Shown piece by piece: positions 8,438 to 59,156 of a stretch of 64,000 nt of DNA. Every line of letters starts with the position of its first letter. Position 1 is the stretch's first letter. The position numbers were made by a program, and so were the translations under genes. The notes beneath the pieces were generated by a model, which did no database searches, was not told the DNA's origin, and saw only the letters and a list, made by a program, of their open reading frames with translations. This DNA comes from an uncultured Flavobacteriales bacterium (lineage in GTDB: Bacteria > Bacteroidota > Bacteroidia > CAIKAF01), in assembly GCA_903837495.1 (NCBI GenBank), contig CAILUT010000031.1, positions 29,016-93,015 of the forward strand, written 5' to 3'.

Positions 8438-8592
8438 TTTTGGGGCGGTAATCGGGCTTTCACCGGTTGTCCGCGGCTGTAGGTGGCGGGGCCAGCGGGC
8501 TTGCGGTGGCTCCTAAAGTCGCCTCCGCGCCACGCGGCCCCGGCACCCACAGCCTTGCGGGCAACCCGGTTCAATCCCGCCGCCGGCCGCTC
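8438..8592 (-). ncRNA. Structured hairpin element copy 1 (Flavo-1-like)
   Basis: GC-rich rod hairpin. Shares GGTTGCCCGCAAGG and CCGCGGACAACC with copy 2 and an exact 21-mer (8508-8528) with copy 4. Confidence 0.65.
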
Positions 8593-8726
8593 CTGTCCAA
8601 TTCCCTTTCAACCCATTTTGCGAACCATTGCATTCACCACGCTTCCCAAATCCTGGAACAAATACCCCCTAAATTCCTTTATTCAAAAGAGCGGGCAATT
8701 TTAACCTAACTAATGCCAAGGCTACA

Positions 8727-8734
8727 TACCTTTG
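8727..8734 (+). promoter_or_regulatory. Bacteroidota -7 promoter box for mfd
   Basis: TACCTTTG ending 4 nt before ATG 8739. Confidence 0.6.
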
Positions 8735-8738
8735 CCGA

Positions 8739-11700
8739 ATGAAAGAGACCAATCCCTGCGATGAGGTACTGAATAGCCTGAGCACCTGGCTTAAACAACA
8801 AACAGATTGGAACCTAAGCCCACCCGGCCGAATTCGAATGGAGGGTGCAGGAGGAAGCGCCTTGGCCTTTCTGGTGGCGGCCCACTTTCGCGATTCCGGG
8901 CGAAATCAACTGGTTCTAGCCCGAGACAAAGAAAGCGCTGCCTACTTAAACAACGACCTTGAAACCCTGCTTTCTGCAAAATCCAGCCTTTTTTTTCCAG
9001 AATCTTACCGAAGAGCCTACGACCAACCCGATGTGGACAATGCCAACGTCCTGCTTCGGGCCGAAGCCCTAAACCGGCTTCAAGAAAAATCGCCCCTGTG
9101 CCTGGTTACCTACCCCGAAGCCCTGAGCGAAAAGGTGGTAAGCCGCAAACAGCTTGAATCGCGCAGCCACCGCATTGCCCTGGGCGATCGCCTAGACATG
9201 GATTTTCTGTTCGACCTGTTGGTTTCTTACGACTTTGAACGCGACGACATGGTGTACGAGCCCGGGCAGTTCGCTCTGCGGGGAGGGCTCATGGACGTGT
9301 TTTCTTTTGCCCACAACCAACCCTTTCGCCTCGAATTCGAGGGCGATTTCATTTCCGACATTCGCTTCTTTGAGCCCGAAACCCAATTAAGCCAGGGTTC
9401 TGTCAACCAAGTGGTGCTGCTGCCCTCCATTGAACAGAAAGTGGGCACAGAGGAACGGTTAACCTTGCTCGACTTCATGGGTGCAGGAGTTGATTTCTGG
9501 GTCTATGATTCCCGAGATGCCGCCCAACGCATGGATAAAAAATTCGCCGAGGCCGAACGGGCATTTCAAGCATTAAACAGCCCCGTTCGCCGTACCCAGC
9601 CCGAAGATTTGGTTTGGTCGGGAAACGGCTTTTTGGCCAAACTCCTAAGCCAAACGTTCATGCAATTCGAAGCCCCAGGCGATGCCCAAGACCGAAAAAT
9701 TGACCTTCAGGCCAAAGCCCAACCCCTGTTCAATAAAAAATACGATTTGTTTCGAGCCCATGTCGATGAAATGGCCCAAGCAAAAACCCAAACCCTGCTG
9801 TTTTACGAACAAGAACCTCAGCGCGACCGCCTGATCGCCATTTTTCAAGATCAGTTTCAAATTGGCCCCGACCGCCTGCCTTTTACCTGGGTAAAAAAAG
9901 GGTTAAGCAAAGGGTTTCGATTGCCCCAACAAGGCTGGGCTTGCTATTCCGACCATGAATTGTTCGAGCGTTACCGGCGTTTTCGCATCAAATCCAGGTA
10001 CAGCAAACAACAGGCGGTTTCTGTCCGAGAACTATCGGAACTGCAGCCCGGCGATTATGTAACCCACATTGACCATGGGGTTTGCCGGTTTGCTGGGTTG
10101 GAACTTCAAGAAAACGGAGGCCGCCGGCAAGAAGTCATCAAACTGATGTTTAAGGACGGCGATGCCGTTTTCGTTTCCCTGCAGCAATTGCACCGAATCA
10201 GCCGGCATTCTGGCCGCGACGGGAAAGCCCCAGCCCTGAGCAAATTGGGCAGCAACACCTGGTCCAACCTAAAATCCAAAGCCAAGGCTAGAGTTAAAGC
10301 CCTGGCGTACGACCTACTTAAGCTGTATGCCCAGCGTCAAAAAGAAAAGGGGCATGCCTTTGCTGCCGACAACTACCTGATGCACGAACTGGAGGGCAGC
10401 TTTCCCTTTGAGGAAACCGAAGACCAAGCCAAGGCCATTCGGGACGTAAAGGCCGATATGGAACGAACCCGCCCCATGGATAGATTGGTCTGCGGAGACG
10501 TAGGCTTTGGCAAAACCGAAGTGGCCGTTCGAGCCGCCTTTAAATCTGTTTGCGACAACAAGCAAGTTGCCGTGTTGGTGCCCACCACCATCTTAGCTTT
10601 GCAGCACCATAAAACCTTCGAAAAGCGCTATACGGACCTGCCATGCCGGGTTGAATACATCAACCGCTTTCGTACCGCCGCTGAACAAAAGCAAATTCTG
10701 GCCGACTTAGCCTTGGGAAAGGTCGATGTGCTGATTGGCACCCACAAGCTGTTGGGCAAAGAAGTGCAATTCAAAGACCTAGGCCTTTTGATTATTGACG
10801 AGGAACAAAAATTCGGAGTCAACGCCAAAGACAAACTCAAAACCCTTAGGGTGAACGTGGATACCCTGACCTTAACCGCCACGCCCATACCCCGAACCTT
10901 GCAGTTTTCGTTGCTGGGCGCCCGCGATTTAAGCGTTATTCGAACCCCGCCCGGCAACCGCTATCCCATTTTAACCGAACTCAAAGGGTTCAACGAAGAA
11001 TTCATTCGAGACACCATTCAATTGGAATTGGAACGCGGAGGGCAGGTGTTCTTTTTGCACAACCGCATTCAAAACCTGCCCGAAATGGCGGGGGTTTTGC
11101 AGCGCTTGGTCCCCGATGCCCGCATTCGCTATGCCCATGGACAAATGGACGGCAAGGCCTTAGAAGAAATCATGCTGGAATTTATTCGGGGCGATTTTGA
11201 TGTGCTGGTTTCTACCTCCATCATCGAAAACGGCTTGGATGTGCCCAACGCCAACACCATCTTGATTCACGAAGCTCAAAATTATGGCCTAAGCGACCTG
11301 CATCAAATGCGGGGGCGGGTAGGCCGAGGAAACCGAAAAGCCTTCTGCTATCTAATAACCCCTCCTTTCCATGCCCTGGCCGCCGAAAGCAAACGCAGGC
11401 TGCAAGCCCTCATTGAATTTTCCGATTTGGGCAGTGGATTCCACATCGCCATGAAAGATTTAGACATCCGCGGAGCCGGCGATTTGCTGGGCGCCGACCA
11501 AAGTGGCTTTGTAAATGAAATGGGCTATGAAACCTATCAGCGGGTTTTGGCCGAGGCCATTCAAGAGCTGAAAGAAGAAGCGTTCGCCGAGGAATTTAAA
11601 GAAGAAATGAACTCGCAGGAACACCGCTGGGCTGTGGATTGCCAAATCGATACCGATTTGCCCTTACTGTTGCCAGAAACCTATGTGGACAGCATGGCCG

Positions 11701-12080
11701 AGCGCCTCGCTTTGTACAAAGAATTGGACAGCCTGCAACAAGACCATGAAATTCCCGCTTTTGAATCCCGACTTCGGGACCGATTTGGCCCTTTGCCGGG
11801 GCCAGCTACCGACCTTCTGCTGGCATTAAAACTAAGGCTGAAAGCCCAAAACCTAGGAATCGAACGAATTAGCCTAAAACATGGGCACCTTCAGGCCGGA
11901 TTCCCTGGCCAAGAACGGGCAGCCTATTACAGTTCAGGATTGTTTTCCAAAATTCTAGCCAAAATCGGGAACCGCCGCGATGTAGAAATGCGGCAGCAAA
12001 AAACACGGCTCGTACTCCATTTTAATGGGGTAAAAACCATGACAGACGCTTTGGGCGTGGTCGAGGGGTTGATGGCGTAG
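8739..12080 (+). CDS. mfd: Transcription-repair coupling factor
   Basis: 1113 aa. MDRLVCGDVGFGKTEVA, IIDEEQKFGV, TATPIPRTL, QMRGRVGR, C-terminal TRCF domain. Confidence 0.98.
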   Translation: MKETNPCDEVLNSLSTWLKQQTDWNLSPPGRIRMEGAGGSALAFLVAAHFRDSGRNQLVLARDKESAAYLNNDLETLLSAKSSLFFPESYRRAYDQPDVDNANVLLRAEALNRLQEKSPLCLVTYPEALSEKVVSRKQLESRSHRIALGDRLDMDFLFDLLVSYDFERDDMVYEPGQFALRGGLMDVFSFAHNQPFRLEFEGDFISDIRFFEPETQLSQGSVNQVVLLPSIEQKVGTEERLTLLDFMGAGVDFWVYDSRDAAQRMDKKFAEAERAFQALNSPVRRTQPEDLVWSGNGFLAKLLSQTFMQFEAPGDAQDRKIDLQAKAQPLFNKKYDLFRAHVDEMAQAKTQTLLFYEQEPQRDRLIAIFQDQFQIGPDRLPFTWVKKGLSKGFRLPQQGWACYSDHELFERYRRFRIKSRYSKQQAVSVRELSELQPGDYVTHIDHGVCRFAGLELQENGGRRQEVIKLMFKDGDAVFVSLQQLHRISRHSGRDGKAPALSKLGSNTWSNLKSKAKARVKALAYDLLKLYAQRQKEKGHAFAADNYLMHELEGSFPFEETEDQAKAIRDVKADMERTRPMDRLVCGDVGFGKTEVAVRAAFKSVCDNKQVAVLVPTTILALQHHKTFEKRYTDLPCRVEYINRFRTAAEQKQILADLALGKVDVLIGTHKLLGKEVQFKDLGLLIIDEEQKFGVNAKDKLKTLRVNVDTLTLTATPIPRTLQFSLLGARDLSVIRTPPGNRYPILTELKGFNEEFIRDTIQLELERGGQVFFLHNRIQNLPEMAGVLQRLVPDARIRYAHGQMDGKALEEIMLEFIRGDFDVLVSTSIIENGLDVPNANTILIHEAQNYGLSDLHQMRGRVGRGNRKAFCYLITPPFHALAAESKRRLQALIEFSDLGSGFHIAMKDLDIRGAGDLLGADQSGFVNEMGYETYQRVLAEAIQELKEEAFAEEFKEEMNSQEHRWAVDCQIDTDLPLLLPETYVDSMAERLALYKELDSLQQDHEIPAFESRLRDRFGPLPGPATDLLLALKLRLKAQNLGIERISLKHGHLQAGFPGQERAAYYSSGLFSKILAKIGNRRDVEMRQQKTRLVLHFNGVKTMTDALGVVEGLMA

Positions 12081-12244
12081 AGACGCAACATTTTGCGTCT
12101 CATGGTACGCCGTACAGACGCAACATTTTGCGTCTCATGGTACGCCGTACAGACGCAACATTTTGCGTCTCATGGTACGCCATACAGACGCAACATTTTG
12201 CGTCTCTACGCGCGAAAAATAGACGCAAAATATTGCGTCTCTAC
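12077..12244. repeat. REP-like palindrome array, 5 units at 35-bp period
   Basis: AGACGCAA-N4-TTGCGTCT at 12081, 12116, 12151, 12186 and 12221. Array begins GTAG and ends CTAC. Confidence 0.9.
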
Positions 12245-12286
12245 CCAAAACAATGAATTATGGACGGGGGCGGGGAGCGCATTCCT

Positions 12287-12294
12287 TAAGTTTG
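12287..12294 (+). promoter_or_regulatory. Bacteroidota -7 promoter box for prs
   Basis: TAAGTTTG upstream of ATG 12319. Confidence 0.45.
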
Positions 12295-12318
12295 CAAGCA
12301 GAATCGTACCTTTAACGC

Positions 12319-13257
12319 ATGTCCGCCATGTCATTCAAACTTTTTGCCCTATCGGGCAGCCAAGAATTGGGGAATGAAGTTGCCGGCCGAATGGGAATTT
12401 CTTTGGGGGCCCTTTTTACCACACGCTTTAGCGACGGAGAAGTGTATGCCCGGTTTGACGAAACCGTTCGAGGCGAAACGGTGGTATTGCTGGCTCAAAT
12501 CAACCTGCCTTACCACAACCTGTTTGAATTGCTGGTGGCGGCCGATGCCGCACGCCGGTCTTCCGCTCGAGAAGTGGTGGCGGTTTTGCCCTATTTGCCC
12601 CACAGCCGGCAGGAGCGCCGCGACGGGGAACGAACCGCCGTTACCTCGCGGTTGATGGCAGAAACCATTGAACTTTCGGGAGTGAACCGGGTTCTTACCC
12701 TTGACCTGCATTCCATGAGCATCGAGGGGTTTTTCAAAATTCCCATTGACCACCTGCAAATGAGTGCCGAGTTTGTGAAGGACATACGGGAGCAATATGG
12801 GGACAAGCCACTGATGGTGTGCAGCCCCGATTTCGGGGGAATAAAGCGAATACGCGCCTACAAACAAGCCCTGAACTGCGACATGGCGGTTATTCACAAA
12901 GAACGCCTAAGGCCCAACGAAGTGGACAGAATGGAAATCATTGGAGACCCCAGCGGAAAGCATGTGGTGTTGATTGACGACATGACCGACACAGGGGGCA
13001 CGCTGGTGGCTGCCGCCCGATTGCTTTTGAAGCAGGGCGCCCTTTCCGTGCGGGCCTATTGCAGCCACGGTGTTTTATCGGGCGAAGCGGTGGAACGCAT
13101 ACAAGCCTCGGACCTGCAAGAACTGGTCTTTACCAACAGCTTGCCCAACCGCCCCCAAGGGCCCAAATTCCGGGTGCTTTCCTGCGCCCCCTTGCTGGCC
13201 CGTGCCCTTGAAAACCTGTCAAGAAACCAAAGCATCAAGACCTTAAACAACATCTGA
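12319..13257 (+). CDS. prs: Ribose-phosphate pyrophosphokinase
   Basis: FSDGE, TLDLHS, SPDFGG, LIDDMTDTGGTL PRPP-binding motif. Confidence 0.96.
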   Translation: MSAMSFKLFALSGSQELGNEVAGRMGISLGALFTTRFSDGEVYARFDETVRGETVVLLAQINLPYHNLFELLVAADAARRSSAREVVAVLPYLPHSRQERRDGERTAVTSRLMAETIELSGVNRVLTLDLHSMSIEGFFKIPIDHLQMSAEFVKDIREQYGDKPLMVCSPDFGGIKRIRAYKQALNCDMAVIHKERLRPNEVDRMEIIGDPSGKHVVLIDDMTDTGGTLVAAARLLLKQGALSVRAYCSHGVLSGEAVERIQASDLQELVFTNSLPNRPQGPKFRVLSCAPLLARALENLSRNQSIKTLNNI

Positions 13258-14657
13258 TGTGGGGTAAGATCATCTCGGCTACCGACCTGGTTTGGTTTTT
13301 TTTCCTGTTTTTGGTGTTTTATTGGTATGCCAATAAGGTCAGCAACCTCAACATAAAAGAAAAACCCCATTACCGATACTTTACCCGGGCCTTGGTGTTC
13401 CGAATGTTGATGAGCTTGGTGTTTTTAGGCATCTATATTTTTTACTACGGTGGCGGAGACACCATCAATTATTGGGAGGCGGCGAATGCCTACAACAATT
13501 TATTTACGGCCAACTTTGATCAGTTTTGGGAGTTGATGACCATGCAGGTCAGCGAGAGCAACAACTATAAATTCTGGGAATACCTGCATGGAGAAGGGGT
13601 GGTTCATGGCAACATTCACCCTTCCATTTGGAAGCGGCCTGAAAACCTGTTCATTGTTCGGGCCGCCACCTTTCCCATGATTTTAACACAGGGCTCTATT
13701 GCCGGCACCACGGCCATTTTTGCCTTTTTTTCTTTTTTATCCATTTGGAAGATCTACCAGATTTTTTTGCATTATTTTCCGGAGCGGCACAAGGAATTGA
13801 ACATATCCATTCTGCTTATGCCTTCCGTGGCATTTTGGGGTTCTGGGATTATGAAAGACACGCTAACCATGATAGGTATTGGTTTTTTTCTGGACGCTCT
13901 TTTTCGCCGGTTCATTACCCACAAAATCGATCCCATTACCTTTTTTATTCAAGCCTTTATTTCAGGCTGGCTCATCTTTAATGCCAAATCCTACATATTG
14001 ATTGCCATGACTCCAGGGCTTTTGGTTTGGCTGAACTTTGATTCAATAAAGCAAATCAAAAGCGTTTTGATTCGAGTGGTAGTTTTACCCACGGTTGTTT
14101 TCGGTTCTTTGTTGGGGGCCACAGCTTTTTACCTTCAGGGAGGAGACCGCTTTGGAGAGTATTCGGCCGATACGGTGTTGGAAAAGGCCTCCCTGACCCA
14201 ACAGGATTTGGTGCGGGATCAATACGGTGAAAACAAATTCGATATTGGGGGCTTTGATCCTACCATTCAAGGCATTATCCCTAAAATTCCTATTGCCATC
14301 AATGCCGGATTGTATCGCCCGTACATTTGGGAGAGCGGCTCTCCGACTATGTTTTTTTCAGGATTGGAAAACAGTTATTTGTTGTTTTGGACTGTTGTTT
14401 TGCTTTATCGAAGTAAGGTGGGGGGCTTTTTCGTTCGGATTTTTCAGTATCCCTTGTTTGTATTTTGCCTTTCGTTTTCGTTGTTTTTGGCTTTTTCTAT
14501 TGGTCTAACTGCTGGCAATTTTGGTGCCTTGGTCCGGTATAAAATACCGATGCTCCCCTTTTTTACTTCCATGATTATGGTGCTTTCTTTCAGGAAAATA
14601 GCGCCCGAAAAGAATAAACTGGGGCCGGTCGTTCAAGGCGGCAAAACCAAGCGATAA
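13257..14657 (+). CDS. Multi-pass membrane protein, possible Wzy-like polymerase or GT-C enzyme
   Basis: About 10 hydrophobic segments, YYGGGDT..Y, PSVAFWGSGIMKD, NFGALVRYK. Confidence 0.6.
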   Translation: MWGKIISATDLVWFFFLFLVFYWYANKVSNLNIKEKPHYRYFTRALVFRMLMSLVFLGIYIFYYGGGDTINYWEAANAYNNLFTANFDQFWELMTMQVSESNNYKFWEYLHGEGVVHGNIHPSIWKRPENLFIVRAATFPMILTQGSIAGTTAIFAFFSFLSIWKIYQIFLHYFPERHKELNISILLMPSVAFWGSGIMKDTLTMIGIGFFLDALFRRFITHKIDPITFFIQAFISGWLIFNAKSYILIAMTPGLLVWLNFDSIKQIKSVLIRVVVLPTVVFGSLLGATAFYLQGGDRFGEYSADTVLEKASLTQQDLVRDQYGENKFDIGGFDPTIQGIIPKIPIAINAGLYRPYIWESGSPTMFFSGLENSYLLFWTVVLLYRSKVGGFFVRIFQYPLFVFCLSFSLFLAFSIGLTAGNFGALVRYKIPMLPFFTSMIMVLSFRKIAPEKNKLGPVVQGGKTKR

Positions 14658-14659
14658 GT

Positions 14660-15115
14660 ATGCCAAGTCCTGAGGTTAGAGCTCAAATAATTCGATTTTG
14701 TGCCCGAAGAGAACGTTCGCAACGGGAGGTACTGGATAAAATTCGAGAACTGCAAGCTCCAACCCAATGGCTGGAGGAACTTCAGCAAGAAGGCTGGTGG
14801 AATCAGGAACGCTTTGCCAAGGCGTATGCTTTTGACCATTGGAATTTGCACCATTGGGGAAAAGAAAAAATAAGCCACGGTTTGCGGGCAGCAGGGGTGG
14901 ATTCGAGGCTGAGGCAGCAGGTTTTGAACAACCTTCCTCATGAGGAATACCTTCAAAAGCTAAAGCGCTTAATGCAGAGAAAGCAGCAATCTTATGCCCA
15001 AGATATTACGGAAGAACTTCGGCAAAAGAGTCGAAGCCACTTTGCCCGTAAGGGATACAGCTGGGACGATATTCTGGATGCAGAAAAAGGCTTGACCTAT
15101 GGGGAAGAATTTTAA
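14660..15115 (+). CDS. recX: Regulatory protein RecX
   Basis: FCARRERSQREV..K, ERFAKAY, WGKEKI..GL, ARKGYS. Confidence 0.9.
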   Translation: MPSPEVRAQIIRFCARRERSQREVLDKIRELQAPTQWLEELQQEGWWNQERFAKAYAFDHWNLHHWGKEKISHGLRAAGVDSRLRQQVLNNLPHEEYLQKLKRLMQRKQQSYAQDITEELRQKSRSHFARKGYSWDDILDAEKGLTYGEEF

Positions 15116-15159
15116 CACTGAATCCGCCCTTAAAACCAAGGGAAAAATTTAGTTCCAAA

Positions 15160-16155
15160 TCAAGGAGCCGCCGCCGCACGGACAAATTTGTCGTTGAGGG
15201 CATCGGCAAAAGGCAGGTGTTCGGGCAGCATGCGGACAAAAATTTGGGAGAATCCCGCTTGGTCGGCTTCCCGCAAACAGGCATACCATTTTCGGGCGGC
15301 TTCGTAGGGGTCATTGTTTTGCGACAAGACCCAAACGTTTGCATGGTTGGGATGGGCTTCGGCAAGGGGCAGAATTAAGGCCACATTAGAACCCAGTTCT
15401 GGCCACGGCTGGTCCGATTTTAGAATAGACAAGGGCGTTCGGGGAGCGTAATGCCTTGACAGCATGCCTGGAGCAGCCGGGTGTTCCTCGGAACGGATGC
15501 GTTCTTCGGGAAGGTAGCCCAAAACTCGAGCCAATGCGGAGCTTTCAATGCCCCCTCGGCGGTACACCCGAGCTTTTCCATCTTCAAATCCAACAATGGT
15601 CGATTCCAGACCAACCTCGCAATCTCCCCCGTCCAACACGTAGGGCAGCTCCGGCCCAAATGCCTCCCGTACATGCCTGGCTTTTGTGGGACTAATGTAG
15701 CCAAACAGGTTGGCCGAAGGGGCCGCCAACGGAAAGTCAAGCATGTCCAACAGCGCCAAGGCCATGAGATGGCTGGGCATGCGCAGGCCTACTCGGTCTA
15801 AGCCCGAGGTAACCAGGTCGGGAATGCGTTCGGTTTTAGGCAGCAACAGGGTTAGTGGCCCAGGCCAAAAAGCGGCCATCAGGGCTTCTGCTTCTGTTGG
15901 TATTTCACGTACCCATTCACGAAAGGGGGAATTTGGACCAATATGAACAATCAAGGGGTCAAAATCGGGCCGTTTTTTGGCTTTGAAAACCCGGGCCACC
16001 GCTTCTGCGTCCAAAGCATTGGCGGCCATTCCATACACGGTTTCGGTAGGCATGCCCACCGGAAGGCCTTGCTGCAAGTACCGAGCAGCCAAGCCCAGGT
16101 CGGTTCCTATACTGGGAGCATGCCGGTTTCTGTCCAAATTTGGTTTATTGGGCAT
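15160..16155 (-). CDS. sua5: Threonylcarbamoyl-AMP synthase (Sua5/TsaC)
   Basis: PTETVYGMAA, KKRPDFDPLIVH, AAPSAN, APGMLSRHYAP (SUA5 domain). Confidence 0.95.
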   Translation of the reverse strand: MPNKPNLDRNRHAPSIGTDLGLAARYLQQGLPVGMPTETVYGMAANALDAEAVARVFKAKKRPDFDPLIVHIGPNSPFREWVREIPTEAEALMAAFWPGPLTLLLPKTERIPDLVTSGLDRVGLRMPSHLMALALLDMLDFPLAAPSANLFGYISPTKARHVREAFGPELPYVLDGGDCEVGLESTIVGFEDGKARVYRRGGIESSALARVLGYLPEERIRSEEHPAAPGMLSRHYAPRTPLSILKSDQPWPELGSNVALILPLAEAHPNHANVWVLSQNNDPYEAARKWYACLREADQAGFSQIFVRMLPEHLPFADALNDKFVRAAAAP

Positions 16156-18586: not shown

Positions 18587-18602
18587 TGGGAAGAAATATC
18601 TG

Positions 18603-18610
18603 CAAAAATA
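18603..18610 (-). promoter_or_regulatory. -7 promoter box for pheT
   Basis: TATTTTTG on the minus strand upstream of ATG 18586. Confidence 0.45.
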
Positions 18611-18675
18611 GGAAATGGACATGGAGGGGCAATATTTTTAATGTATGGAAACCACAAAAACCAAGCACTTGCCCG

Positions 18676-18683
18676 TACATTTG
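18676..18683 (+). promoter_or_regulatory. -7 promoter box, divergent from pheT
   Basis: TACATTTG 20 nt before ATG 18704. Confidence 0.45.
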
Positions 18684-18703
18684 AAACTTAGAATAGAATA
18701 TTA

Positions 18704-20805: not shown

Positions 20806-20901
20806 CGGTTAAGGTAAGAAAAGGAAAGCGGTAAAAGTGCAAAAAGGGCCTAAGTTAAAGAAATCCTAAAGTCAAGTAGAAAAAGAATGCCGGTTTTTTT
20901 T

Positions 20902-21060
20902 GAGCGGCCTGCGGGCCGGATGGAAGAAGGTTGCCCGCAAGGGGCAGCTTGGATTCTGGCGCGCGGCGGCAAGGGCGACCTTGGGAGCCACTTGCCGCCC
21001 GCTGCCGGAACCAAGCTGCACCGCGGACAACCTCTGACAGCCGGATAACCCGCCCCAAAA
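20902..21060 (+). ncRNA. Structured hairpin element copy 2 (Flavo-1-like)
   Basis: Nested stems GCAGCTTGG/CCAAGCTGC, TTCTGGC/GCCGGAA and GGCGGCAAG/CTTGCCGCC, apical GGCGACCTTGGGAGCC, end CGCCCCAAAA. Confidence 0.65.
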
Positions 21061-21154
21061 CAAGACAAACAACGCCCTGCGTTGCAGATTATAGGGCAGG
21101 CCGCTATTTAAATTGTAAAATTTAGAGTAGGTTTGATTTCTAAATCGTTAAATA

Positions 21155-22618: not shown

Positions 22619-22623
22619 AAACC

Positions 22624-23676: not shown

Positions 23677-23718
23677 AGACTATTTTTATACCTTTAATCC
23701 AACCAGCCACCACTACGA

Positions 23719-45732: not shown

Positions 45733-45758
45733 GATTCGCGCAGGAAAGCAAAGAACTC

Positions 45759-46757: not shown

Positions 46758-46762
46758 TAAAA

Positions 46763-50226: not shown

Positions 50227-50278
50227 ATTTAGCTAGAATGGAGGTGATTTAATTTCCAGCCAATCTTATCCAAAACCC

Positions 50279-51364: not shown

Positions 51365-52695
51365 ACAAGCCCCTCTGCCTGCCTATGCTGGGTGGTGTAT
51401 GGTTGTTGTTTTCGCATCTGTTGTTTTGGGTCTATGCTCCACTGTTTGACATTACACCCGATTATTTTGATTACTTCAGCGTGGCCGACAGCTGGCTAAA
51501 GGGCCAATTTGGGAATTACCAAGGCGTTTTGATCGACCTTCCCCTAGGCTTGCCCATGCTTCTTTTCCTAAAATCCTTTTTTGGAATTTCTACGCCCGCT
51601 TACATAGGCATACAAAGTATAGCCATGGTCTTGCTTTACCTATGGCTATCTGTTGTTTGGACTCGGAAATGGGGCTGGTACGGAGGCTTCTCGGCCTTGC
51701 TGCTTGCTGCTTACCTTTCAGATGGCTATTCCCTGGCTTTGTTCACCGCGCCCTTGACCGAACCCCCATTTTTCTTGTTGTTGTTGCCGATGCTCAGCTT
51801 GCTGCCTTCGATTTTGAGTTCGACTCCCAAACTCAAACATTCCATGGCTTTTGGAATTTTGCTGATGCTTTTGCCTCTATTCCGGTCCAACGGCATACTG
51901 CTCTGGCCTTGGGCTTTGGGCATTTTAAGCTATTTGTTTTTTGTTAAATCCAAGGCATTTAAACCGTTGCTGGCAACCTTGCTTGCCTCGGGCCTATTCT
52001 TAATGGGCTTAAGTTGGCTTTTGGTTGGCTATCCGAACTACGGAAACACAGGGCGGCTTTTGGCCTTGGTTCAGGGAGCTAAAACCAAATCAATGGTTCA
52101 AGACCAATCCGACCAAAGGCCAACAGTGAGCTTGAATGGGCCAATGTACCTCTATAACCTGGCCTTTGATCGGCCTTCTTTTTACTATACCCTTTTGCCC
52201 GCACGCATTGAAAAGCACTTGGTGAATCAAAAACTGAACTGGTCTGCCTACCGGATGTACGATGATGCCACCTTGGTTCCCGAACGATGGCGCCTTTCCT
52301 TATTAAACGAAATGCAAGAGATAGACAAGAGCCATCAAATCCAAAATCAAGCCAAGCAAGGCAGATTTAGTGCCGAGAAATCCAGCGCCCTTCCTTTGAA
52401 GATATACCATGCAGGCTACGTGCTGCATAGCCTTGTTTTGAACCATGCCCTTTGGCTGGGATTGGCGGCAGCGCTTTTGTTTGCTGCGGCCTTCAAAATG
52501 GGTGGGCCTGCGACCCAAGATGCCTTATTTTTGTGGTTGTTGGCATTGCTGTATTTAATTCTGACCCTGGCTTTGGATTTTAGTTTGTCAATACACCTGC
52601 CCCGCTATGGCTTTCTTCAAGATTTCATTCCTTATTTGATAGTTCCTTTGGGCATTCGCCTGATGTTCAAAAAAACACACCCCCATGCTCCATAA
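51349..52695 (+). CDS. Multi-pass membrane protein, putative GT-C
   Basis: TPD..DY, PLGLP, LTEP, FRSNG, PRY; many TMs. Confidence 0.6.
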   Translation: MLRKLNKPLCLPMLGGVWLLFSHLLFWVYAPLFDITPDYFDYFSVADSWLKGQFGNYQGVLIDLPLGLPMLLFLKSFFGISTPAYIGIQSIAMVLLYLWLSVVWTRKWGWYGGFSALLLAAYLSDGYSLALFTAPLTEPPFFLLLLPMLSLLPSILSSTPKLKHSMAFGILLMLLPLFRSNGILLWPWALGILSYLFFVKSKAFKPLLATLLASGLFLMGLSWLLVGYPNYGNTGRLLALVQGAKTKSMVQDQSDQRPTVSLNGPMYLYNLAFDRPSFYYTLLPARIEKHLVNQKLNWSAYRMYDDATLVPERWRLSLLNEMQEIDKSHQIQNQAKQGRFSAEKSSALPLKIYHAGYVLHSLVLNHALWLGLAAALLFAAAFKMGGPATQDALFLWLLALLYLILTLALDFSLSIHLPRYGFLQDFIPYLIVPLGIRLMFKKTHPHAP

Positions 52696-53782
52696 CAAAA
52701 CCGTAGCCGTCGTCGTACCCTGCTACAACGAAGAAACCCAAATCACCGAGGTACTCGATTCCATGCCCCAATTCGTGGACCGAATTGTCCTGGTGAACGA
52801 TTGCAGCACCGACCGTACCGCCCAAGTCATCTTGGACTACATCGCCAACCAAGCCCCGGCCCCATTTGCCATCAGCAACATTCTAAACACCGTTGTGCCC
52901 AACCGCTACAACCGCGCCAGCCAAGTGGTTCAAAAATTGCAGCAAGAGGAACTGGGCTTATTCTTGCCTTCTAAGGTTGAAAACCAACAACCCGAGCAGG
53001 AGCGCATTATTTTTATTAATCTGTTGCAAAGCGGCGGAGTTGGTGCCGCCATTGCCCGGGGGTACAAATGGGCAAAAGACCACGGCATTGACTGCACCGC
53101 CGTTATGGCCGGCGATGGGCAAATGGATCCCGATGAACTGGAAAGCATTTGCTTGCCCGTGGTTCAAGAGGGCATAGATTATGTAAAGGGAAACCGCCTG
53201 ATTCACCGCAGCGCCCTGCTGGTTATACCCAAAATCAGGTACCTTGGGAATTCCGTACTCTCCATTTTAACCAAAATGGCCAGCGGCTATTGGCATGTTT
53301 CCGACACCCAAACAGGCTACACAGCCCTTTCGAACAAAGGGCTGAATGCCATACGTTTGCATCAGATTTACCCCCGCTACGGCATGCCCAACGACATGCT
53401 GGTTAAGCTCAACATTGCCTTTTGCAGCCTGCGCGAGGTTGAAATCAAGCCCGTGTACGACGTGGGCGAACAAAGCAAAATGAAAATCCTAAAGGTCATT
53501 CCCCGCATTGCCTGGCTCCTGTTCAAAGGCTTTTTCCGCCGGCTTTGGCACAAATACCTGTTTCGGGACTTTCACCCCCTATTTCTGCTCTACCACTTTT
53601 CTTTCTTTCTGGGAATAATCTGGTTGCCCTACTTATACAAAGTAAGTAAGGCGATGTGGCTGGGAACAACCATGAACTTCGAAACCCTGTTCGCCTTTAC
53701 CTTTTTGGGCATCTCGTCCATTCAAAGCTTTTTGTTCGCCATGTGGATGGACATTCAAGACAACGAACGCCTGTACAAATAA
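52685..53782 (+). CDS. GT2 dolichol/polyprenyl-phosphate glycosyltransferase-like
   Basis: VVVPCYNEE, NDCSTD, MAGDGQMDP, YVKGNR, DTQTGY, C-terminal TMs. Confidence 0.9.
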   Translation: MLHNKTVAVVVPCYNEETQITEVLDSMPQFVDRIVLVNDCSTDRTAQVILDYIANQAPAPFAISNILNTVVPNRYNRASQVVQKLQQEELGLFLPSKVENQQPEQERIIFINLLQSGGVGAAIARGYKWAKDHGIDCTAVMAGDGQMDPDELESICLPVVQEGIDYVKGNRLIHRSALLVIPKIRYLGNSVLSILTKMASGYWHVSDTQTGYTALSNKGLNAIRLHQIYPRYGMPNDMLVKLNIAFCSLREVEIKPVYDVGEQSKMKILKVIPRIAWLLFKGFFRRLWHKYLFRDFHPLFLLYHFSFFLGIIWLPYLYKVSKAMWLGTTMNFETLFAFTFLGISSIQSFLFAMWMDIQDNERLYK

Positions 53783-53783
53783 C

Positions 53784-55694
53784 ATGTGCGGAATAACCGG
53801 CATATACCTTAGCGACAGCCAACAATTCAGGCCCGAACTTCTGTCTAGGCTGCTTCAGCTTTCGCAGACCAGGGGCAAAGAGGCCTCGGGCCTGGCCTTG
53901 CGCGACAGCCAAACCCTGCGCTTTGTACGCTGCCCCCGGCCCGCCGAAGAACTGATGCGCACGGATGCCTACAAAAATCTAATTCAGGAGCGGGCCCCGG
54001 GCCCCATGTACCTGATTGCCCATTCCCGCTTGGTAACCAACGGCCACGAAAGCCAAAACCACAACAACCAGCCCGTGCACAGCGCGCCCTGGGTTTTGGT
54101 GCACAACGGCATTGTGGTGAATGCCGCCGAACTCTGGCAACAATGGGGAGCCGCACACAAACAGAGCGAGGTGGACAGCGAAGTGTTGGCAAGGGGTCTC
54201 GCCCTGCTCCCCGCCGAACAGCGCAACAGCCTGTTCAGCAGCATAAAAGGAACCGCTTCGCTGATAGCCTTGAATTCCGAATCCCCGGGCTGGTGGTACG
54301 GAAGCAACAACGGCAGCCTGTATTCCTTGCAAAATCCTGCCGGAACCCTGCAGGTGCTGGCTTCGGAACAACCCATGCTGCAGCAAATCCAAACCGAATT
54401 TTCCGACCTTTTCCCCTCGAGTTCCCGCCTGCATGCTCCCCAACTGAGCCAGGGCGAAGAACGGTGGGAGCAAGGAGGGGCAGTGCCCGTGCAGGAAGTA
54501 ACCTCGGGACTTTCGGCGCCCATTCAAGCCCCAACCATGCATGGTGCATCGGGTTTGGAGCGCTTTCAGGCCCTTGCAAAGGAAACCCAAGAAAGGGTGG
54601 ACAGCCTGCGGCGGTGCAGCCGCTGCATTTTGCCTGAAACCTTTCCTTACATAGAGTTCGATGCCCAAGGAGTCTGCAACCAGTGCCGCAACCACCAACC
54701 GTTGCAGCCCAAGGGGACTGCCGCATTGCAGGCAGAGGTCCAGCGTTTGGCCCGGCCTGCAGGCCAGAGACCCCAATGTTTGGTTCCCTTTAGCGGCGGG
54801 CGCGACAGCAGTTTTGCCCTGCATTATTTGGTGCATGAGTTGGGCTTAAAGCCCTTGGCCTTCAGCTACGACTGGGGATTGCTCACCGATTTGGCCCGAC
54901 GCAACCAAGCGCGCATGTGCGGAGCCTTGGGAGTAGAGCATATACTAATTTCGGCCGACATCCGCGCCAAGCGGGCCAACGTACGCCGGAACGTCAGTGC
55001 CTGGCTTCGCCGACCCAGGTTGGGCACCATTCCCTTGTTCATGGCCGGCGACAAACAGTACTTTTTCCATGCCGCAAAGCTCATGAAGGCGTATGGCTTG
55101 GATTTGTCGGTAATGGGTGAAAACCTGTTGGAAACCACCCGATTTAAAACCGCTTTTTGCGGCATACCTCCTCGGTTTAATCAGACAAAAACCTACCAAC
55201 TAACGGTGGCCGATAAAGGCAAAATGCTGATGTACTATGGCAAGGAATACCTGCTGAACCCTGCCTATATTAATGCTTCGCTCATCGACACCCTGGGCGC
55301 TTTTGGCTCCTACTATGCGCTGCCGCACCGCAATCTGAATTTGTTCGACTACCTGCCTTGGCAAGAGCAGCCCTTAGAGCAGCTCTTGTTGGGGCAATAC
55401 GACTGGGAAACCGATCCAGAAACGCCCACCACCTGGCGCATTGGCGACGGCACGGCCGCCTTTTACAACTACATCTACTGGTCGGTGGCCGGCTTTACCG
55501 AAAACGACACCTTCCGCAGCAATCAGCTGCGCGAAGGGCAAATAACGCGGGCCGAGGCCCTCAGCAAGGCCCGGGCCGAGAACCAACCCCGCTGGGGCGG
55601 ATTGCAGTGGTATTGTTCCACCATTGGCCTCGACGTGCAAGGCGTACTCAGCCGCATAGCCAGCATGCCCAGCCTAATGCCCATAGCAAAATGA
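53784..55694 (+). CDS. Fused class II glutaminase plus N-acetyl-sugar amidotransferase (WbuX/WbpG-like)
   Basis: MCGITG, HSRL.TNG, HNGI..N, DSE; then CSRC..P....FD..GVCNQC and PP-loop SGGRDSS. Confidence 0.82.
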   Translation: MCGITGIYLSDSQQFRPELLSRLLQLSQTRGKEASGLALRDSQTLRFVRCPRPAEELMRTDAYKNLIQERAPGPMYLIAHSRLVTNGHESQNHNNQPVHSAPWVLVHNGIVVNAAELWQQWGAAHKQSEVDSEVLARGLALLPAEQRNSLFSSIKGTASLIALNSESPGWWYGSNNGSLYSLQNPAGTLQVLASEQPMLQQIQTEFSDLFPSSSRLHAPQLSQGEERWEQGGAVPVQEVTSGLSAPIQAPTMHGASGLERFQALAKETQERVDSLRRCSRCILPETFPYIEFDAQGVCNQCRNHQPLQPKGTAALQAEVQRLARPAGQRPQCLVPFSGGRDSSFALHYLVHELGLKPLAFSYDWGLLTDLARRNQARMCGALGVEHILISADIRAKRANVRRNVSAWLRRPRLGTIPLFMAGDKQYFFHAAKLMKAYGLDLSVMGENLLETTRFKTAFCGIPPRFNQTKTYQLTVADKGKMLMYYGKEYLLNPAYINASLIDTLGAFGSYYALPHRNLNLFDYLPWQEQPLEQLLLGQYDWETDPETPTTWRIGDGTAAFYNYIYWSVAGFTENDTFRSNQLREGQITRAEALSKARAENQPRWGGLQWYCSTIGLDVQGVLSRIASMPSLMPIAK

Positions 55695-55722
55695 GAAAGG
55701 CGTTTATTTGCAATCCTGAATA

Positions 55723-55880
55723 TTTGGGCGCCAATTCCGGCCCTTACTGCTACTCCGCGCTGCGGCATGCCGCTGGGCAGCCCGGCAGCGGTGGTTCCGC
55801 AAAGCTCCACCCCGCCACCGGGGCCCAGCCGCATCCCGCCGCTTGCGGGGTATCCGTGCGGTCCGGGGCGCAGGGCGCTC
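55723..55880 (-). ncRNA. Structured hairpin element copy 3 (divergent member)
   Basis: Minus strand reads GAGCGCCC...CCCCGCAA...[GCTGGGC/GCCCAGC, CCCGG/CCGGG stems]...GCGGA...GGCGCCCAAA. Confidence 0.55.
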
Positions 55881-55917
55881 ATGTTAGAGAAGCTAATCAA
55901 AGAAAAAACATTAATTC

Positions 55918-57123
55918 ATGAACAAACGAAACATACTTGTTTTGTCTTCTTCTTATCCAAAATTCTCAGGGGATGTGAATGGGGTATTCATCCATAGCTT
56001 TTGTAAAAGCTTAACCAGTAAGTTTAATATTTTTGTCATAGCGCCTTGGGAAAATGGAATTGCAGAAGAAGAGAATTTAGATGGTGTTCATATCATCAGG
56101 CACAAACAATTTCTTTGGAATGTAAACTTTGCCTACGGGATCGGTATAGAGGATAAATTAAAGCAAAACAGACTCCTTTATTTTGTAGTTCCTTTCTTTT
56201 TTTTCTTCCAGATGTTGGAGGTTAGACGAGTGATGCGAGAATATGACATTAGCCTTATTCATGCCCATTGGTTAATTCCCTCGGCTCTTGTTGCAGTTTT
56301 TTATAAAATATTGTTTAAGAGAAAAATACGGATTATAAGCACGGTTCTTGGTTCGGATGTTTGGAGTTTTAATAAAGGATTAAGGAAGAAAATCCTTGGG
56401 TTTGCCTTCGACAAAATCGATGTAATCACGGCACAAAGTGCACCTTTACTTGAGGAGATAATCCACTTGGGTTATAAGGGCATTTCTTATCTACTTCCCT
56501 TGGGCATTGATACCGAAAAATTTAAGCCCAATCATCTGAATAATGATGTTCGAAAAAAACATCAAATCAAAGGGTTTTTTTTACTGTTTGTCGGAAGCAT
56601 AATTGAGGGGAAAGGTGTAATAACACTGGTGGAATCAATGGCATTGCTTAAAAAAAGAAATGACAATTTTAAACTTTTAATTGTTGGCGCGGGCAATCTA
56701 GAGCATCGATTGCAACTAATGATTAATCAAAATGGCTTAGAAAACCATGTTGAGATGACTGGGCCTATTCCAAATGAAGAACTTCCGCCTTTCTTTTCTG
56801 GTGCAGATATTTTTGTTCTACCAAGTTTTTCAGAAGGTTTTCCACTTGTGGTAATGGAAGCGATTAGTTCTGGAACGGTGCCCGTTGTTTCTGATTTGTC
56901 CGTTTTCGCTGATAATGAAAATCGAGATGTCTTATTTAACCTTGTTAAGGCTGGGAATGCAGAAAATATAGCAGAAGTATTGTTTAAATTAATGGATAAT
57001 CCTGAACAAGTTAAAAAAAGGAAGGATAGTTTGCGAAAATTCGCAGTCGAAAACTATGAAATTACAATTATTGCTGAAAGATATGCTATAGTGTATGAAG
57101 ATTTGTTGGAACATTTAACTTGA
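55918..57123 (+). CDS. Glycosyltransferase family 4 (AT-rich)
   Basis: SSSYPK, HAHWLIP, FVGS...KG, PSFSEGFPLVVMEA. Confidence 0.9.
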   Translation: MNKRNILVLSSSYPKFSGDVNGVFIHSFCKSLTSKFNIFVIAPWENGIAEEENLDGVHIIRHKQFLWNVNFAYGIGIEDKLKQNRLLYFVVPFFFFFQMLEVRRVMREYDISLIHAHWLIPSALVAVFYKILFKRKIRIISTVLGSDVWSFNKGLRKKILGFAFDKIDVITAQSAPLLEEIIHLGYKGISYLLPLGIDTEKFKPNHLNNDVRKKHQIKGFFLLFVGSIIEGKGVITLVESMALLKKRNDNFKLLIVGAGNLEHRLQLMINQNGLENHVEMTGPIPNEELPPFFSGADIFVLPSFSEGFPLVVMEAISSGTVPVVSDLSVFADNENRDVLFNLVKAGNAENIAEVLFKLMDNPEQVKKRKDSLRKFAVENYEITIIAERYAIVYEDLLEHLT

Positions 57124-57301
57124 TACTCAAATTCAAGTAGATTGATTGAAATCAAAAAATAGACTTAAATAAATTATAATTACTTATTACCACATTTTAA
57201 AAATTGCAAAATCATTTTTGACAGCTTAATCACCTAAAAATTCTAAATATTGTATTAGCTTAAAATCAATTCAATCAGTTGATTTCAAAAATTTTACTAG
57301 C

Positions 57302-57877
57302 ATGATACGCGAAAAACTAATTAGAGATATGATAATTGGCAAAGAGGTTTTAGACCTTGGAAGCTTGGGCCAGACAAACTCCTATTCTCTTTGGAATGAT
57401 GTATATAAAAACAGTGGATACAAGAGCCTTAAGGGCATTGATTTGGAGGACGCTAGTCAAACAGCTCTTTCCCACTTTAACGTAAAACCAAGCAAATTAC
57501 CCTCTGATAGTCGAATTGTTTATGGTAATTTTGAGACGTATCAATTTGGGAAACAATTTGATGTAATTGTTGCGGGAAATTTGATTGAACATGTAAACAA
57601 TCAAGGGCTACTGCTCCAAAATGTTCATCGACACTTAAAAACGGACGGAGTATTTATTTTAACTACTCCGAATTCAAAATGGTTGACAGGTTTCCTGAAA
57701 CCCAATCCGACTCATGTCCTTTGGCATGACGAATTTACTTTAAGGCGGGTGCTGAACATAAATGAATTTGAAATAGAAAAGCTAATTTATTATTTTGGTA
57801 ATAAAAAGAATTACAATTATTTTCTACGAATTCTAGCTTTGAGACAATCTATATTTGTAATCTGCAAAAAGAAATAA
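57302..57877 (+). CDS. Class I SAM-dependent methyltransferase (AT-rich)
   Basis: VLDLGS, GIDL, FDVIVAGNLIEHV, LTTPN. Confidence 0.88.
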   Translation: MIREKLIRDMIIGKEVLDLGSLGQTNSYSLWNDVYKNSGYKSLKGIDLEDASQTALSHFNVKPSKLPSDSRIVYGNFETYQFGKQFDVIVAGNLIEHVNNQGLLLQNVHRHLKTDGVFILTTPNSKWLTGFLKPNPTHVLWHDEFTLRRVLNINEFEIEKLIYYFGNKKNYNYFLRILALRQSIFVICKKK

Positions 57878-58053
57878 AATTTTATTGAAGCCGTCTCCCT
57901 TAATCTAATTTTAATGAATTAAAATTTGGTTTGCATTTAAAAATGTTTGAATACCCACAATGGAAAATTGTGGCGTAAGTTTTTCAAATTACTTAAGTAG
58001 CGATTCTTGTAATGATGAATAGCTAAAATCACCCACAGCCGAGCTTGAAAAAA

Positions 58054-59010
58054 ATGAAAATATTAGTAATCATAAAACATTGGTTTTCACTGTTCTTAGG
58101 CTTAATCCTGTTTTTGGGGGCTGTATATTTTGTTTCAGGTGAACTTGAACAATTAAACATACAGAATTCAATTCATGCTGCCTGTTTGGGGGTATCCTAT
58201 GCCTTTTTCTTATTCTTAATTCAAGGGCTAGAACTTAAATTGTTGCTTAAAAGACGCAATTTTTTGCTTGATACAAAAGATACCGTAACCCTCCCATTCT
58301 CGATGAACCTTTGGGGGCATTTTATTCCCGTTCAAGGAGGTTTTTTTTATTTTCTAACCTTTATTAAATCCAAGTACGGCGTATCTATTTTTTCCCTTAC
58401 AGGAGCGTATTTCTGGCTCTTTTTTTTAGGCCTGAGCGTTGATGGCATAATGGGTTTGATGTTATTGGTTCAATTCCAGGCCCCTTACGTGCTAATTTTA
58501 TTTTTAATGGGCATGGCCTGTTCGGTTTTTGTGTTGCATGCCCTGGCTGGTATTCAACATTTCAAAGACATAGAGGCCGGACCGAGCTGGAAAGGCAAAT
58601 TAATTCAGCGCATACAGACAGCCTTAGAGGGCTTTAGCCAATTTAAGGCAGTAGATTACCTGCGCTTTGCCGGCATTTCGGTGCTCTTGACCGCCTTAAA
58701 TTCCCTTTGGGGTTGGCAAATATCCAAGGAGTTTGACCTTGGAATTGATTTGGCGGGAGTTTTTTATGCTACCGTTTTGATGCGAATAGGGCTTTTGCTA
58801 AAAATAACGCCCGGAAATTTAGGTGTTTTGCAATTGGGCAGTGGAGCCGTCTTTTCGGCCTTAGGCTATAGTGCCTCGGCAGGAATTTTCATTTCTGTTT
58901 GGCAACAAGCCTCCATGCTGCTCGTTTCGATTCCCATTGGCTTGGCAGGAACCTGGCTGAACCGCCACCAATTTTCATGGAAATCGCTTTTTTACACCAC
59001 CCGGCCCTAG
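58054..59010 (+). CDS. Lysylphosphatidylglycerol-synthase-TM / flippase-like membrane protein
   Basis: About 8 TMs, ITPGNLGVLQ motif. Confidence 0.7.
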   Translation: MKILVIIKHWFSLFLGLILFLGAVYFVSGELEQLNIQNSIHAACLGVSYAFFLFLIQGLELKLLLKRRNFLLDTKDTVTLPFSMNLWGHFIPVQGGFFYFLTFIKSKYGVSIFSLTGAYFWLFFLGLSVDGIMGLMLLVQFQAPYVLILFLMGMACSVFVLHALAGIQHFKDIEAGPSWKGKLIQRIQTALEGFSQFKAVDYLRFAGISVLLTALNSLWGWQISKEFDLGIDLAGVFYATVLMRIGLLLKITPGNLGVLQLGSGAVFSALGYSASAGIFISVWQQASMLLVSIPIGLAGTWLNRHQFSWKSLFYTTRP

Positions 59011-59156
59011 CGCCCCCGATTGCAGTGGAAAGCCCGCAGGGCTTGGGCGGAAGGGCCGGGCAGCGGGCGGAGGCGACTTTAGGAGCCCACGCAGCGCTCC
59101 CCGGCCCCCGACCAAGACCGAGGACTTGCAACGGAAAGCGGGATGGGCGCCCAAAA
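59003..59156 (+). ncRNA. Structured hairpin element copy 4 (closest to the Flavo-1 RNA motif as recalled)
   Basis: GATTGCAGTGGAAAGCCCGCAG ... GAGGACTTGCAACGGAAAGC arms, apical GGCGACTTTAGGAGCC, end GGGCGCCCAAAA. Confidence 0.7.

Follow-up and report, generated by a model that had tools for sequence, protein, structure and literature searches.

What are the four G+C-rich hairpins of about 155 nt that lie in a 64,000-nt stretch of DNA from an uncultured Flavobacteriales bacterium (contig CAILUT010000031.1 of assembly GCA_903837495.1; the whole stretch is called the window below), how did they come to be there and what has kept them? A sequence-only reading of the window had described them as a family of four members. 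This count is wrong, as iterated nhmmer searches place the family at 277 loci in the genome, and the copies are old, to judge from their sequences (median identity 61-71%, with orthologous sites in a sister species). In our estimate there is about an even chance that they are the domesticated cores of an extinct miniature inverted-repeat transposable element (MITE), kept for the fold of one strand. Elements of this general kind are already known, as the Flavo-1 motif and as structured repeats resembling repetitive extragenic palindromic (REP) sequences. New here are the compensatory evolution of copies in place, the absence of a RAYT transposase, a MITE that carries the core in a sister genus and a rule governing the orientation of neighbouring copies.

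The family and its fold

The genome that contains the window, that of a freshwater bacterium, is small (2.51 Mb in 67 contigs) and assembled to 100% completeness. A covariance model built from the four window copies and run on this genome matches all 150 candidates scored, out of 885 first-look candidates. After two nhmmer rounds the 277 loci divide almost evenly between the strands (138 plus, 139 minus) and have a median length of 151 nt; 234 are full length. The family is thus present at about one copy per 9 kb and makes up about 1.6% of the genome's DNA, and exactly four members fall in the window. As every locus is matched on one strand only, the element has a clear sense. Many contigs start or end within a copy (20 of 246 copies here; many matches in G025, the genome from the sister genus, lie within the first 400 nt of a contig), which indicates that the repeat limits assembly and that the copy numbers are lower bounds. 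Model searches find the family in all six other genomes of the genus, in each of which the matches reach the scoring cap, and massively in G025, with one or two further matches in each of four other genomes of the taxonomic family and none in 34 genomes from other families of the class. Public named records that contain a 19-mer of the family are nearly all Flavobacteriales or Bacteroidetes genomes; the same 19-mer, used as an indicator of phage carriage, has no match in viral_contigs.

The anatomy of the element was read from 35 model-aligned copies and from 222 copies for which two motifs served as anchors. The sequence of the element is conserved over most of its length, and the fold is built in layers. 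The outermost is a stem, followed by a helix with GGGATTGAA in the 5' arm facing TGAAAGCC in the 3' arm; paired by hand, these form an A.G, two U-A pairs and a tandem G.A/A.G step. The third layer is a helix with a conserved C.A mismatch and an AA bulge (CCCGCAAGG facing CGCGGAC). The fourth, about 20 bp per arm, is free to vary in sequence among copies while its pairing is kept. The apex is conserved (GGAGGCGACTTTAGGAGCC, a second tandem G.A step and a 4-nt loop), and the first and last bases of the loop covary (U-A in 28 copies, C-G in 6). Beyond the 3' end is an A-rich run, here called the tail (60-74% A across about seven positions). Full-length copies have on average 54.6 pairs and a minimum free energy (MFE) of -91 kcal/mol. 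Each window copy folds into a single long rod, as had been described (MFE -78 to -101 kcal/mol; z -2.8 to -8.1 against mononucleotide shuffles), with a G+C content of 69-74% compared with 48.8% genome-wide.

The pairing of the arms is maintained through sequence change. Among the 35 model-aligned copies, both sides change in 26 of the 36 model pairs. The covariation score is 0.292, compared with 0.078 in shuffled alignments (0/500 shuffles reach 0.292), and falls to 0.056 or less when partner columns are slid. Median copy-to-copy identity is 61% in the multiple alignment and 71% pairwise, and the maximum is 94%, so that the near-identical copies of a recent burst are not seen here; in G025 the median is 91%.

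Comparison with the sister species (G006), which is syntenic with the window and 84-93% identical to it, allows changes at single loci to be followed. Over 480 kb of G006, 37 of the 39 copies with mappable flanks have an orthologous copy, and reverse mapping agrees. In 29 ortholog pairs the element is 90.2% identical, compared with 80.4% for the 300 nt on each side, and changes affect 6.0% of paired and 12.0% of unpaired positions (flanks, 20%). The 1495 aligned base pairs include 45 double changes where 5.3 are expected under independence, and 38 of the 45 remain standard pairs; these double changes are spread across many loci. Single changes leave 31 pairs standing and break 57. In the 17 ortholog pairs that are at least 90% identical there are eight compensated double changes and no broken ones; the elements have evolved gradually in place and were not replaced by other copies. 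Together with the covariation score, these counts support the earlier view that the fold is under selection. With hundreds of old copies at orthologous sites, such selection is measurable site by site.

The selected structure appears to belong to one strand. In the variable stems of the 124 copies (of 234) that could be anchored, read in the sense direction, there are 46 G.U pairs and 14 A.C mismatches (p=4e-5); for entire elements the ratio is 243:165 when the conserved C.A is not counted. The excess of G.U over A.C suggests that it is the fold of the sense strand, and not merely a double-stranded palindrome, that is kept.

Some of this pattern could arise without any function. A palindrome may maintain itself if a change in one arm is transferred to the other, by intrastrand template switching (quasipalindrome correction) or by repair of extruded hairpins, in which case the copies would be inert relics. 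Such processes can produce compensated changes far above expectation in the absence of selection, G+C-biased repair would explain a G+C content of 70%, some 20 points over that of the genome, and neither a promoter, a terminator shape nor a partner protein was found for the element. However, correction should erase mismatches, bulges and tandem G.A steps, and these are kept in most of the 234 copies. It also predicts no preference for G.U over A.C, it does not account for unpaired positions changing less than the flanks (12% and 20%), and it leaves the alternating orientation of the copies (see below) unexplained. We regard self-maintenance without function as unlikely.

Kinship with Flavo-1 and a MITE in a sister genus

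The sequence-only reading had likened copy 4 to the Flavo-1 RNA motif (Rfam RF01705; gathering cut-off 42 bits). At this cut-off Flavo-1 has no match in the window and none in the whole genome, where the best score is 29.3 bits. In a permissive search (E<=10) copies 1, 2 and 3 have no match; copy 4 scores 19.8 bits. The proposed likeness therefore holds in that copy 4 can be aligned from end to end (model positions 1-76, through the outer helices), and fails in that the score is below the cut-off. The largest difference is at the apex, where copy 4 has 89 nt and the Flavo-1 model 23.

Short hairpins (63-69 nt) that score 28-29 bits against Flavo-1 also occur. There are three in the genome (Table 1), nearly identical to one another, with the same outer motifs as copy 4; each is directly followed by a second small G+C-rich hairpin. 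The purine-rich internal-loop motifs of the outer helix, which these short forms share, are at least 89% conserved over 222 copies of the long family. They correspond to the Flavo-1 loops GAU(U/A)G..A in the 5' arm and G(A/U)AAGC in the 3' arm, and one G025 copy, like copy 4, aligns to the model from end to end. From this common core of sequence motifs we read the family as a long, GC-rich branch of Flavo-1, although it is not a member by the Rfam test. Like Flavo-1, it belongs to the Bacteroidota, is multi-copy within genomes and occurs in either direction relative to genes. It differs in length (about 155 nt compared with 76), with a conserved apex and some 90 nt of additional G+C-rich stem where Flavo-1 has a 23-nt hairpin, and in density (about 1 per 9 kb; a genome that abounds in canonical Flavo-1 has 11 copies in 400 kb). 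Flavo-1 itself scores above the cut-off in 15 of 81 genomes of the class, with some matches 105-129 nt long.

Flavo-1 is entered in a table by Weinberg et al. (2010; PMC2864571) and has been an orphan motif since that year; passages on it in several papers located by full-text search assign it no function. The genus studied here offers three handles on it, namely orthologous sites, a MITE in a sister lineage and an inversion rule for neighbouring copies.

The MITE is found in G025, which contains at least 141 family matches. The median identity of 91% was obtained for 48 of its copies and points to a recent burst. Flanks were fetched for 20 G025 copies, of which one was dropped for want of an anchor and 19 were analysed. 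The repeat unit is larger than the core: it is 262-279 nt long, is bounded by inverted copies of CCCAAAATTGTCATTAG and has an extra small G+C hairpin on its 5' side. The terminal inverted repeats are 17-19 bp and were recognised on the right in 14/19 copies, on the left in 8/19 and on both sides in 6/19. The core is off-centre in this unit, with 86-102 nt to its left and 37-50 nt to its right. In a subset of copies (L247, L248, L257, L259, L263 and L264) three to five tandem units of about 16 nt (CATCTTCAAATNNNNN) replace the left terminal repeat. The flanks of the insertions are A+T-rich; TTAA occurs on both sides of one copy and imperfectly at others.

The end word of the inverted repeat occurs 72 times in G025, compared with once for a control word, and is widespread in public Bacteroidota and Ignavibacteriota records. 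In one Flavobacteriales record, inverted end words 1.34 kb apart enclose two open reading frames (ORFs) with DDE_Tnp_1_4 domains (83.5 and 59.1 bits). Among five genomes searched, only G025 has a fragment of that transposase, which scores 27.9 bits (less than the cut-off) and is cut by the end of a contig, and a search of G025 for a full-length insertion sequence found no properly spaced pair of terminal repeats. Judging by these sequences, a MITE that is mobilised by a DDE transposase can carry the core along as its cargo, and this is the one mobilising machinery that could be linked to the core. As the transposase family is known by name, the route by which the Flavo-1 core may spread is open to test, and the earlier suggestion of a non-autonomous element is supported.

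ERIC, Correia/NEMIS and RUP are non-autonomous MITEs of 100-300 nt that form long RNA hairpins, are found in both orientations within transcribed intergenic DNA and depend for their movement on a transposase acting in trans. The G025 form resembles them in having terminal inverted repeats. In the window's genus, by contrast, these repeats are gone and the internal core alone is conserved, with compensatory change in place; copy identity (61-71%) is also far lower than in typical MITE families.

Orientation of neighbouring copies

Along the contigs the copies read - + - + and so on. At distances under 10 kb, neighbours in the window's genome are in opposite orientation in 104 cases and in the same direction in 15 (p=1.5e-17), whereas beyond 10 kb the counts are 39 and 34 (p=0.64). 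This alternation is independent of gene direction, as it is seen across co-directional gene blocks (52:5) and across mixed ones (39:10). Of the inverted pairs less than 2 kb apart, 21 are head-to-head, with 5' ends facing and tails outward, and 4 are tail-to-tail (p=9e-4), a pattern consistent with every copy being linked through its tail to the gene beside it. The young population in G025, for which all 30 intervals were fetched and one hidden copy was found, shows no such preference (16 opposite and 15 same direction under 10 kb, p=1.0; Fisher p=4.5e-5 against the window's genome). The rule therefore seems to arise after insertion. In the genome rich in canonical Flavo-1, the 11 copies in 400 kb give six opposite and four same-direction neighbours, too few to judge alternation.

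Alternation of REPs within the clusters known as BIMEs (bacterial interspersed mosaic elements) is in print (Nunvar 2010, PMC2817692), and alternation of dispersed copies was not found in a limited literature search. A rule so strong and unexpected points to some interaction between copies. If it reflects recombination or looping, it bears on how small, streamlined genomes organise and rearrange; if it reflects slow loss of direct repeats, it offers a clean natural measure of that hazard.

The history that we favour, a MITE core domesticated after its transposase was lost, would have the following steps. A DDE transposase acting in trans, as in G025, would once have dispersed the family in the form of a MITE core. 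The transposase would then have been lost, and the inverted repeats and linkers would have decayed, while the hairpin core was retained through selection on the fold of one strand. By analogy with REP, ERIC and Correia elements, the most likely role of the core is that of a stable hairpin, bound by protein, within transcripts crossing intergenic regions. The opposite orientation of neighbours would result from loss, after insertion, of same-direction neighbours within about 10 kb. The position of the core fits arrival by such a MITE, since its asymmetry in the G025 unit is similar to the distances from copies to genes here (medians of 90-113 nt on the 5' side and 20-81 nt on the tail side).

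Several observations weigh against this history. A profile of the whole G025 unit matches one locus in the window's genome, over the core only, with no relic of the ends or of the extra 5' hairpin; the end word is absent from this genome and from all seven genomes of the genus; target-site duplications at 222 copies in the genome are not above permuted controls; and the flanks of the copies are without conservation. The descent of this genus's copies from a MITE is therefore inferred, and the core may be a secondary acquisition of the G025 MITE. The direction of read-through from neighbouring genes does not govern the G.U bias (42:36 where read-through would be sense-only and 78:42 where it would be antisense-only), and the Bacteroidota -7 box has just eight matches in the 100 nt upstream of 233 copies, compared with 45 downstream. 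A simple role in read-through mRNA thus fails to explain why one strand is preferred. As to orientation, the count from G005, a distant species of the genus, is small (nine opposite and two same direction under 10 kb, p=0.065; six and nine beyond). A purge by homologous recombination gains no support from the one test of it, on exact shared words, which are as long in same-direction neighbours as in opposite ones (median 14 nt in both classes; three pairs share 33-54 nt). Lastly, the evidence for RNA is a weak hint. Sixteen lake DNA runs hold at least half of the sampled words of window positions 5000-14900, and four metatranscriptome runs hold small shares. Compared with positions 4000-23900, contigs of all four runs match the conserved apex and continue as other family copies, and one contig extends from the gene upstream across the first 17 nt of copy 1; contigs of this kind reveal neither strand nor ends and do not prove transcription.

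Alternation might instead mark the copies as directional sites in DNA, on pairs of which a recombinase or a protein binding hairpins or cruciforms acts, so that same-direction neighbours are resolved or deleted and inverted ones tolerated; the sites would mark where exchangeable gene blocks meet. The fading of the preference beyond 10 kb and its independence of gene direction speak for such sites, as do breakpoints of synteny. About 12 of 22 indels (over about 1 kb) or rearrangements relative to the 480 kb of G006 lie within about 170 nt of a copy in a table read by eye, both apparent inversions among them (p=1.8e-6; about 12% of intergenic regions hold a copy), and an 8.3-kb segment absent from G006 has its right edge exactly at the first base, the 5' end, of copy 4. 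Yet synteny with G006 is otherwise colinear and inversions are rare, no candidate enzyme was identified, and selection for stem pairing or for G.U over A.C would not be expected at a double-stranded site. Several kinds of repeat also gather in variable intergenic regions, which may explain part of the breakpoint enrichment. We consider directional sites quite unlikely, and give no better prospects to their wider form, a genome-wide system (a hairpin or cruciform recombinase, or a loop-forming protein) through which neighbours interact and same-direction sites less than about 10 kb apart are resolved and lost, with inverted sites being stable. Were that form correct, the chromosome would be divided into blocks of about three genes whose borders are preferred for gene gain, loss and inversion.

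Sites with a copy in G006 and none here are occupied by tandem arrays (two sites, one of which also has a half copy) or by a cluster of short REP-like palindromes. Empty sites were therefore of no use for fixing the ends of the element, as the few copy-less sites carry other repeats or a half copy. The tandem arrays are at about 99550-100200 and 30750-31500 of contig C56 and have units of about 75-95 nt; one is joined to the decayed half element. The palindromes, three perfect 22-nt copies of GAGACGCAAAATTTTGCGTCTC at regular spacing, lie at about 2690-2840 of contig C46, at the site of a G006 copy, and represent a separate REP-like family in a genome where a RAYT gene was not found.

Integron attC sites had also been offered as a parallel. 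The copies share with attC an imperfect palindrome of similar length, a structure that is kept while the sequence varies, the use of one strand and a position next to stop codons at the borders of variable genes. They are set apart by layout: they are dispersed (about 1 per 9 kb) and alternating, without same-direction cassette arrays. No integron integrase was seen, although no search for one was made. The attC reading is not supported.

Gene context, transposases and the window copies

All family copies are intergenic; 61 that had appeared to lie inside an ORF proved to be cases of short spurious ORFs or of 5' extensions over the G+C-rich element. Context was classed with the elements masked and with a crude ORF-based gene call, and of 246 copies of at least 131 nt the 20 at contig edges were set aside, leaving 226. 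These comprise 116 between tandem, 65 between convergent and 45 between divergent genes, compared with 1365, 270 and 267 of the genome's 1902 intergenic regions (chi-square p=4e-12, with convergent pairs enriched). In tandem contexts 49 copies lie along the gene direction and 67 against it (p=0.11), a random distribution that bears out the earlier statement that copies occur in either orientation relative to genes. Where the tail faces a stop codon (132 copies), the median distance from its end is 20 nt; where it faces a start (94 copies), the median is 81 nt.

Each copy could be an independent small-RNA gene with its own promoter, its product acting in trans or binding a protein. The irregularities of the fold (tandem G.A steps and the covarying tetraloop) look RNA-like, and the sense-strand G.U bias is compatible with an RNA. 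The metatranscriptome contigs with family copies can be read in the same way, most of all in run X17, in which depth reaches 61.5 at the conserved apex compared with 4-7 for gene contigs; this depth sums many copies, however, and may include DNA. Some 277 genes for one small RNA would have no precedent, and the -7 box, the promoter motif looked for, is not enriched upstream of the 233 copies. In Flavobacterium psychrophilum, Flavo-1 is reported in sense or antisense of transcribed regions, with many copies outside them (Guerin et al. 2021, PMC9723704, in the part that concerns this motif). Small-RNA genes are, in our view, improbable.

The suggestion that HUH nucleases mobilise the copies leads to REPINs, paired REPs that are single-stranded substrates copied by an unlinked RAYT transposase (HUH, Y1), with background in Bertels and Rainey (2011; PMC3116915); the conserved loops would then be the enzyme's recognition site. 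As with REP, BIME and REPIN sequences, the copies are numerous, intergenic, palindromic, vertically inherited and long-lived, one strand is favoured, and inverted doublets occur (the excess of head-to-head pairs under 2 kb noted above). The Y1_Tnp domain was nevertheless not found in the window's genome, in G006 or in G025 (assemblies that are 96-100% complete and fragmented), although these include the copy-richest genomes, whereas 21 of the 28 genomes searched have it, most of them lacking the element. The best Pfam match in the window's genome has 12.3 bits and is in an ORF that we take, by eye, to be of a ribosome-maturation type, and tblastn with a RAYT from the same genus gives a best E-value of 0.59. 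These results speak against the HUH/RAYT part of the earlier interpretation. A conserved GTAG or CGTC tag defines REPs, and no such tag was seen in the conserved ends here. The unit is a single 155-nt rod and not two REPs of 20-40 nt, alternation is between dispersed copies kilobases apart and not within a cluster, and the genome has its own, separate family of short REP-like palindromes (GAGACGCAAAATTTTGCGTCTC above). The doublets do not behave as paired ends of one unit either: the similarity of neighbours (median 0.70-0.73) does not exceed that of random pairs (0.71), the spacers of 14 head-to-head doublets (43-236 nt) are unrelated, and no decayed partner was found beside 218 singletons. 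A REPIN-like origin has a slim chance at best.

A reverse-transcriptase route to the A-rich tail was also considered and rejected, RVT_1 being absent from the window's genome and from G025. DDE_Tnp_1_4 is likewise absent from the window's genome.

That the copies are ordinary intrinsic terminators is very improbable: the hairpins are strong and G+C-rich, often end close past a stop codon (the 132 of 226 copies above) and are enriched between convergent genes (65/226 compared with 270/1902), but a T-rich run follows the hairpin in just 12/233 copies in the sense direction and 41/233 in the antisense direction, a T-run beside a stop codon precedes the hairpin in that gene's transcript, 45 copies lie between divergent genes and conserved internal motifs are not needed for termination.

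The four window copies were found on the strands and, to within a nucleotide, at the places first described (Table 1). The shared words that had been quoted are present as well: copies 1 and 4 have a 21-mer in common, copies 1 and 2 share two 12-14-mers, and copies 1-3 start with GAGCG. Against the family profile in nhmmer, the divergent copy 3 scores 27 bits only.

Table 1. Positions of hairpin copies and related features (window coordinates unless a contig is named)
Feature	Position	Strand	Remarks
Copy 1	8438-8592	-	own covariance model 146.3 bits; typical long form
Copy 2	20902-21060 (model span 20902-21059)	+	own covariance model 155 bits; typical long form
Copy 3	55722-55880	-	own covariance model 134.6 bits; divergent, outer stem and apex differ
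Copy 4	59003-59156	+	own covariance model 122 bits; variant nearest short Flavo-1 and the G025 MITE core
Glycosyltransferase-rich segment, 8.3 kb	50653-58999		in window, absent from sister genome G006
Short Flavo-1-like hairpin	C1:23189-23257	-	28-29 bits, 63-69 nt class
Short Flavo-1-like hairpin	C23:11699-11761	-	28-29 bits, 63-69 nt class
Short Flavo-1-like hairpin	C18:29339-29401	+	28-29 bits, 63-69 nt class

The whole window region is a variable polysaccharide locus, and the neighbours of the copies are polysaccharide-synthesis genes, mfd and a nucleoside transporter gene. Copies 1, 3 and 4 are close to stop codons, as had been noted. The A-rich tail of copy 1 is seen as a T-run at about 8431-8437 of the plus strand, abutting the stop of a glycosyltransferase ORF (7192-8430), so that the element ends 8 nt from this stop; Mfd (8739-12080) is on its 5' side. 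The tail of copy 3 lies 29 nt past the stop of ORF 53784-55694. Copy 4 overlaps both the stop of ORF 58045-59010 and the called start of a GT2 ORF (59143-59961). Copy 2 is flanked by divergent genes, an Lcl_C-domain ORF (20059-20805, minus strand) and the nucleoside transporter (21155-22618, plus strand).

The copies had also been placed at the boundaries of gene blocks, and this is true of three of them. At copies 2 and 4 the breaks in synteny with G006 coincide exactly with the 5' end of the element, and the segment that G006 lacks, the left edge of which is in ORF 50279-51364, contains copy 3; at copy 1 synteny is unbroken. The break at copy 2 consists of about 1.2 kb of extra DNA in G006 directly at the 5' end. 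The orthologs of copies 1 and 2 in G006 have four differences over about 150 nt and five differences, respectively. Copy 1 has an ortholog in another genome of the genus (G002) too, with about 1 kb of A+T-rich DNA on its 5' side, while a third (G003) has at this site a short hairpin only, with the 21 nt on the tail side in common.

Three further differences from G006 have no copy beside them or concern another repeat. Window positions 392-608 match three overlapping places in G006 at an offset of about 87 nt, which indicates a tandem repeat whose copy number differs. G006 lacks the DUF6056 ORF at 18704-20062 and has no counterpart to some 1.8 kb at 26310-28079; no copy adjoins either.

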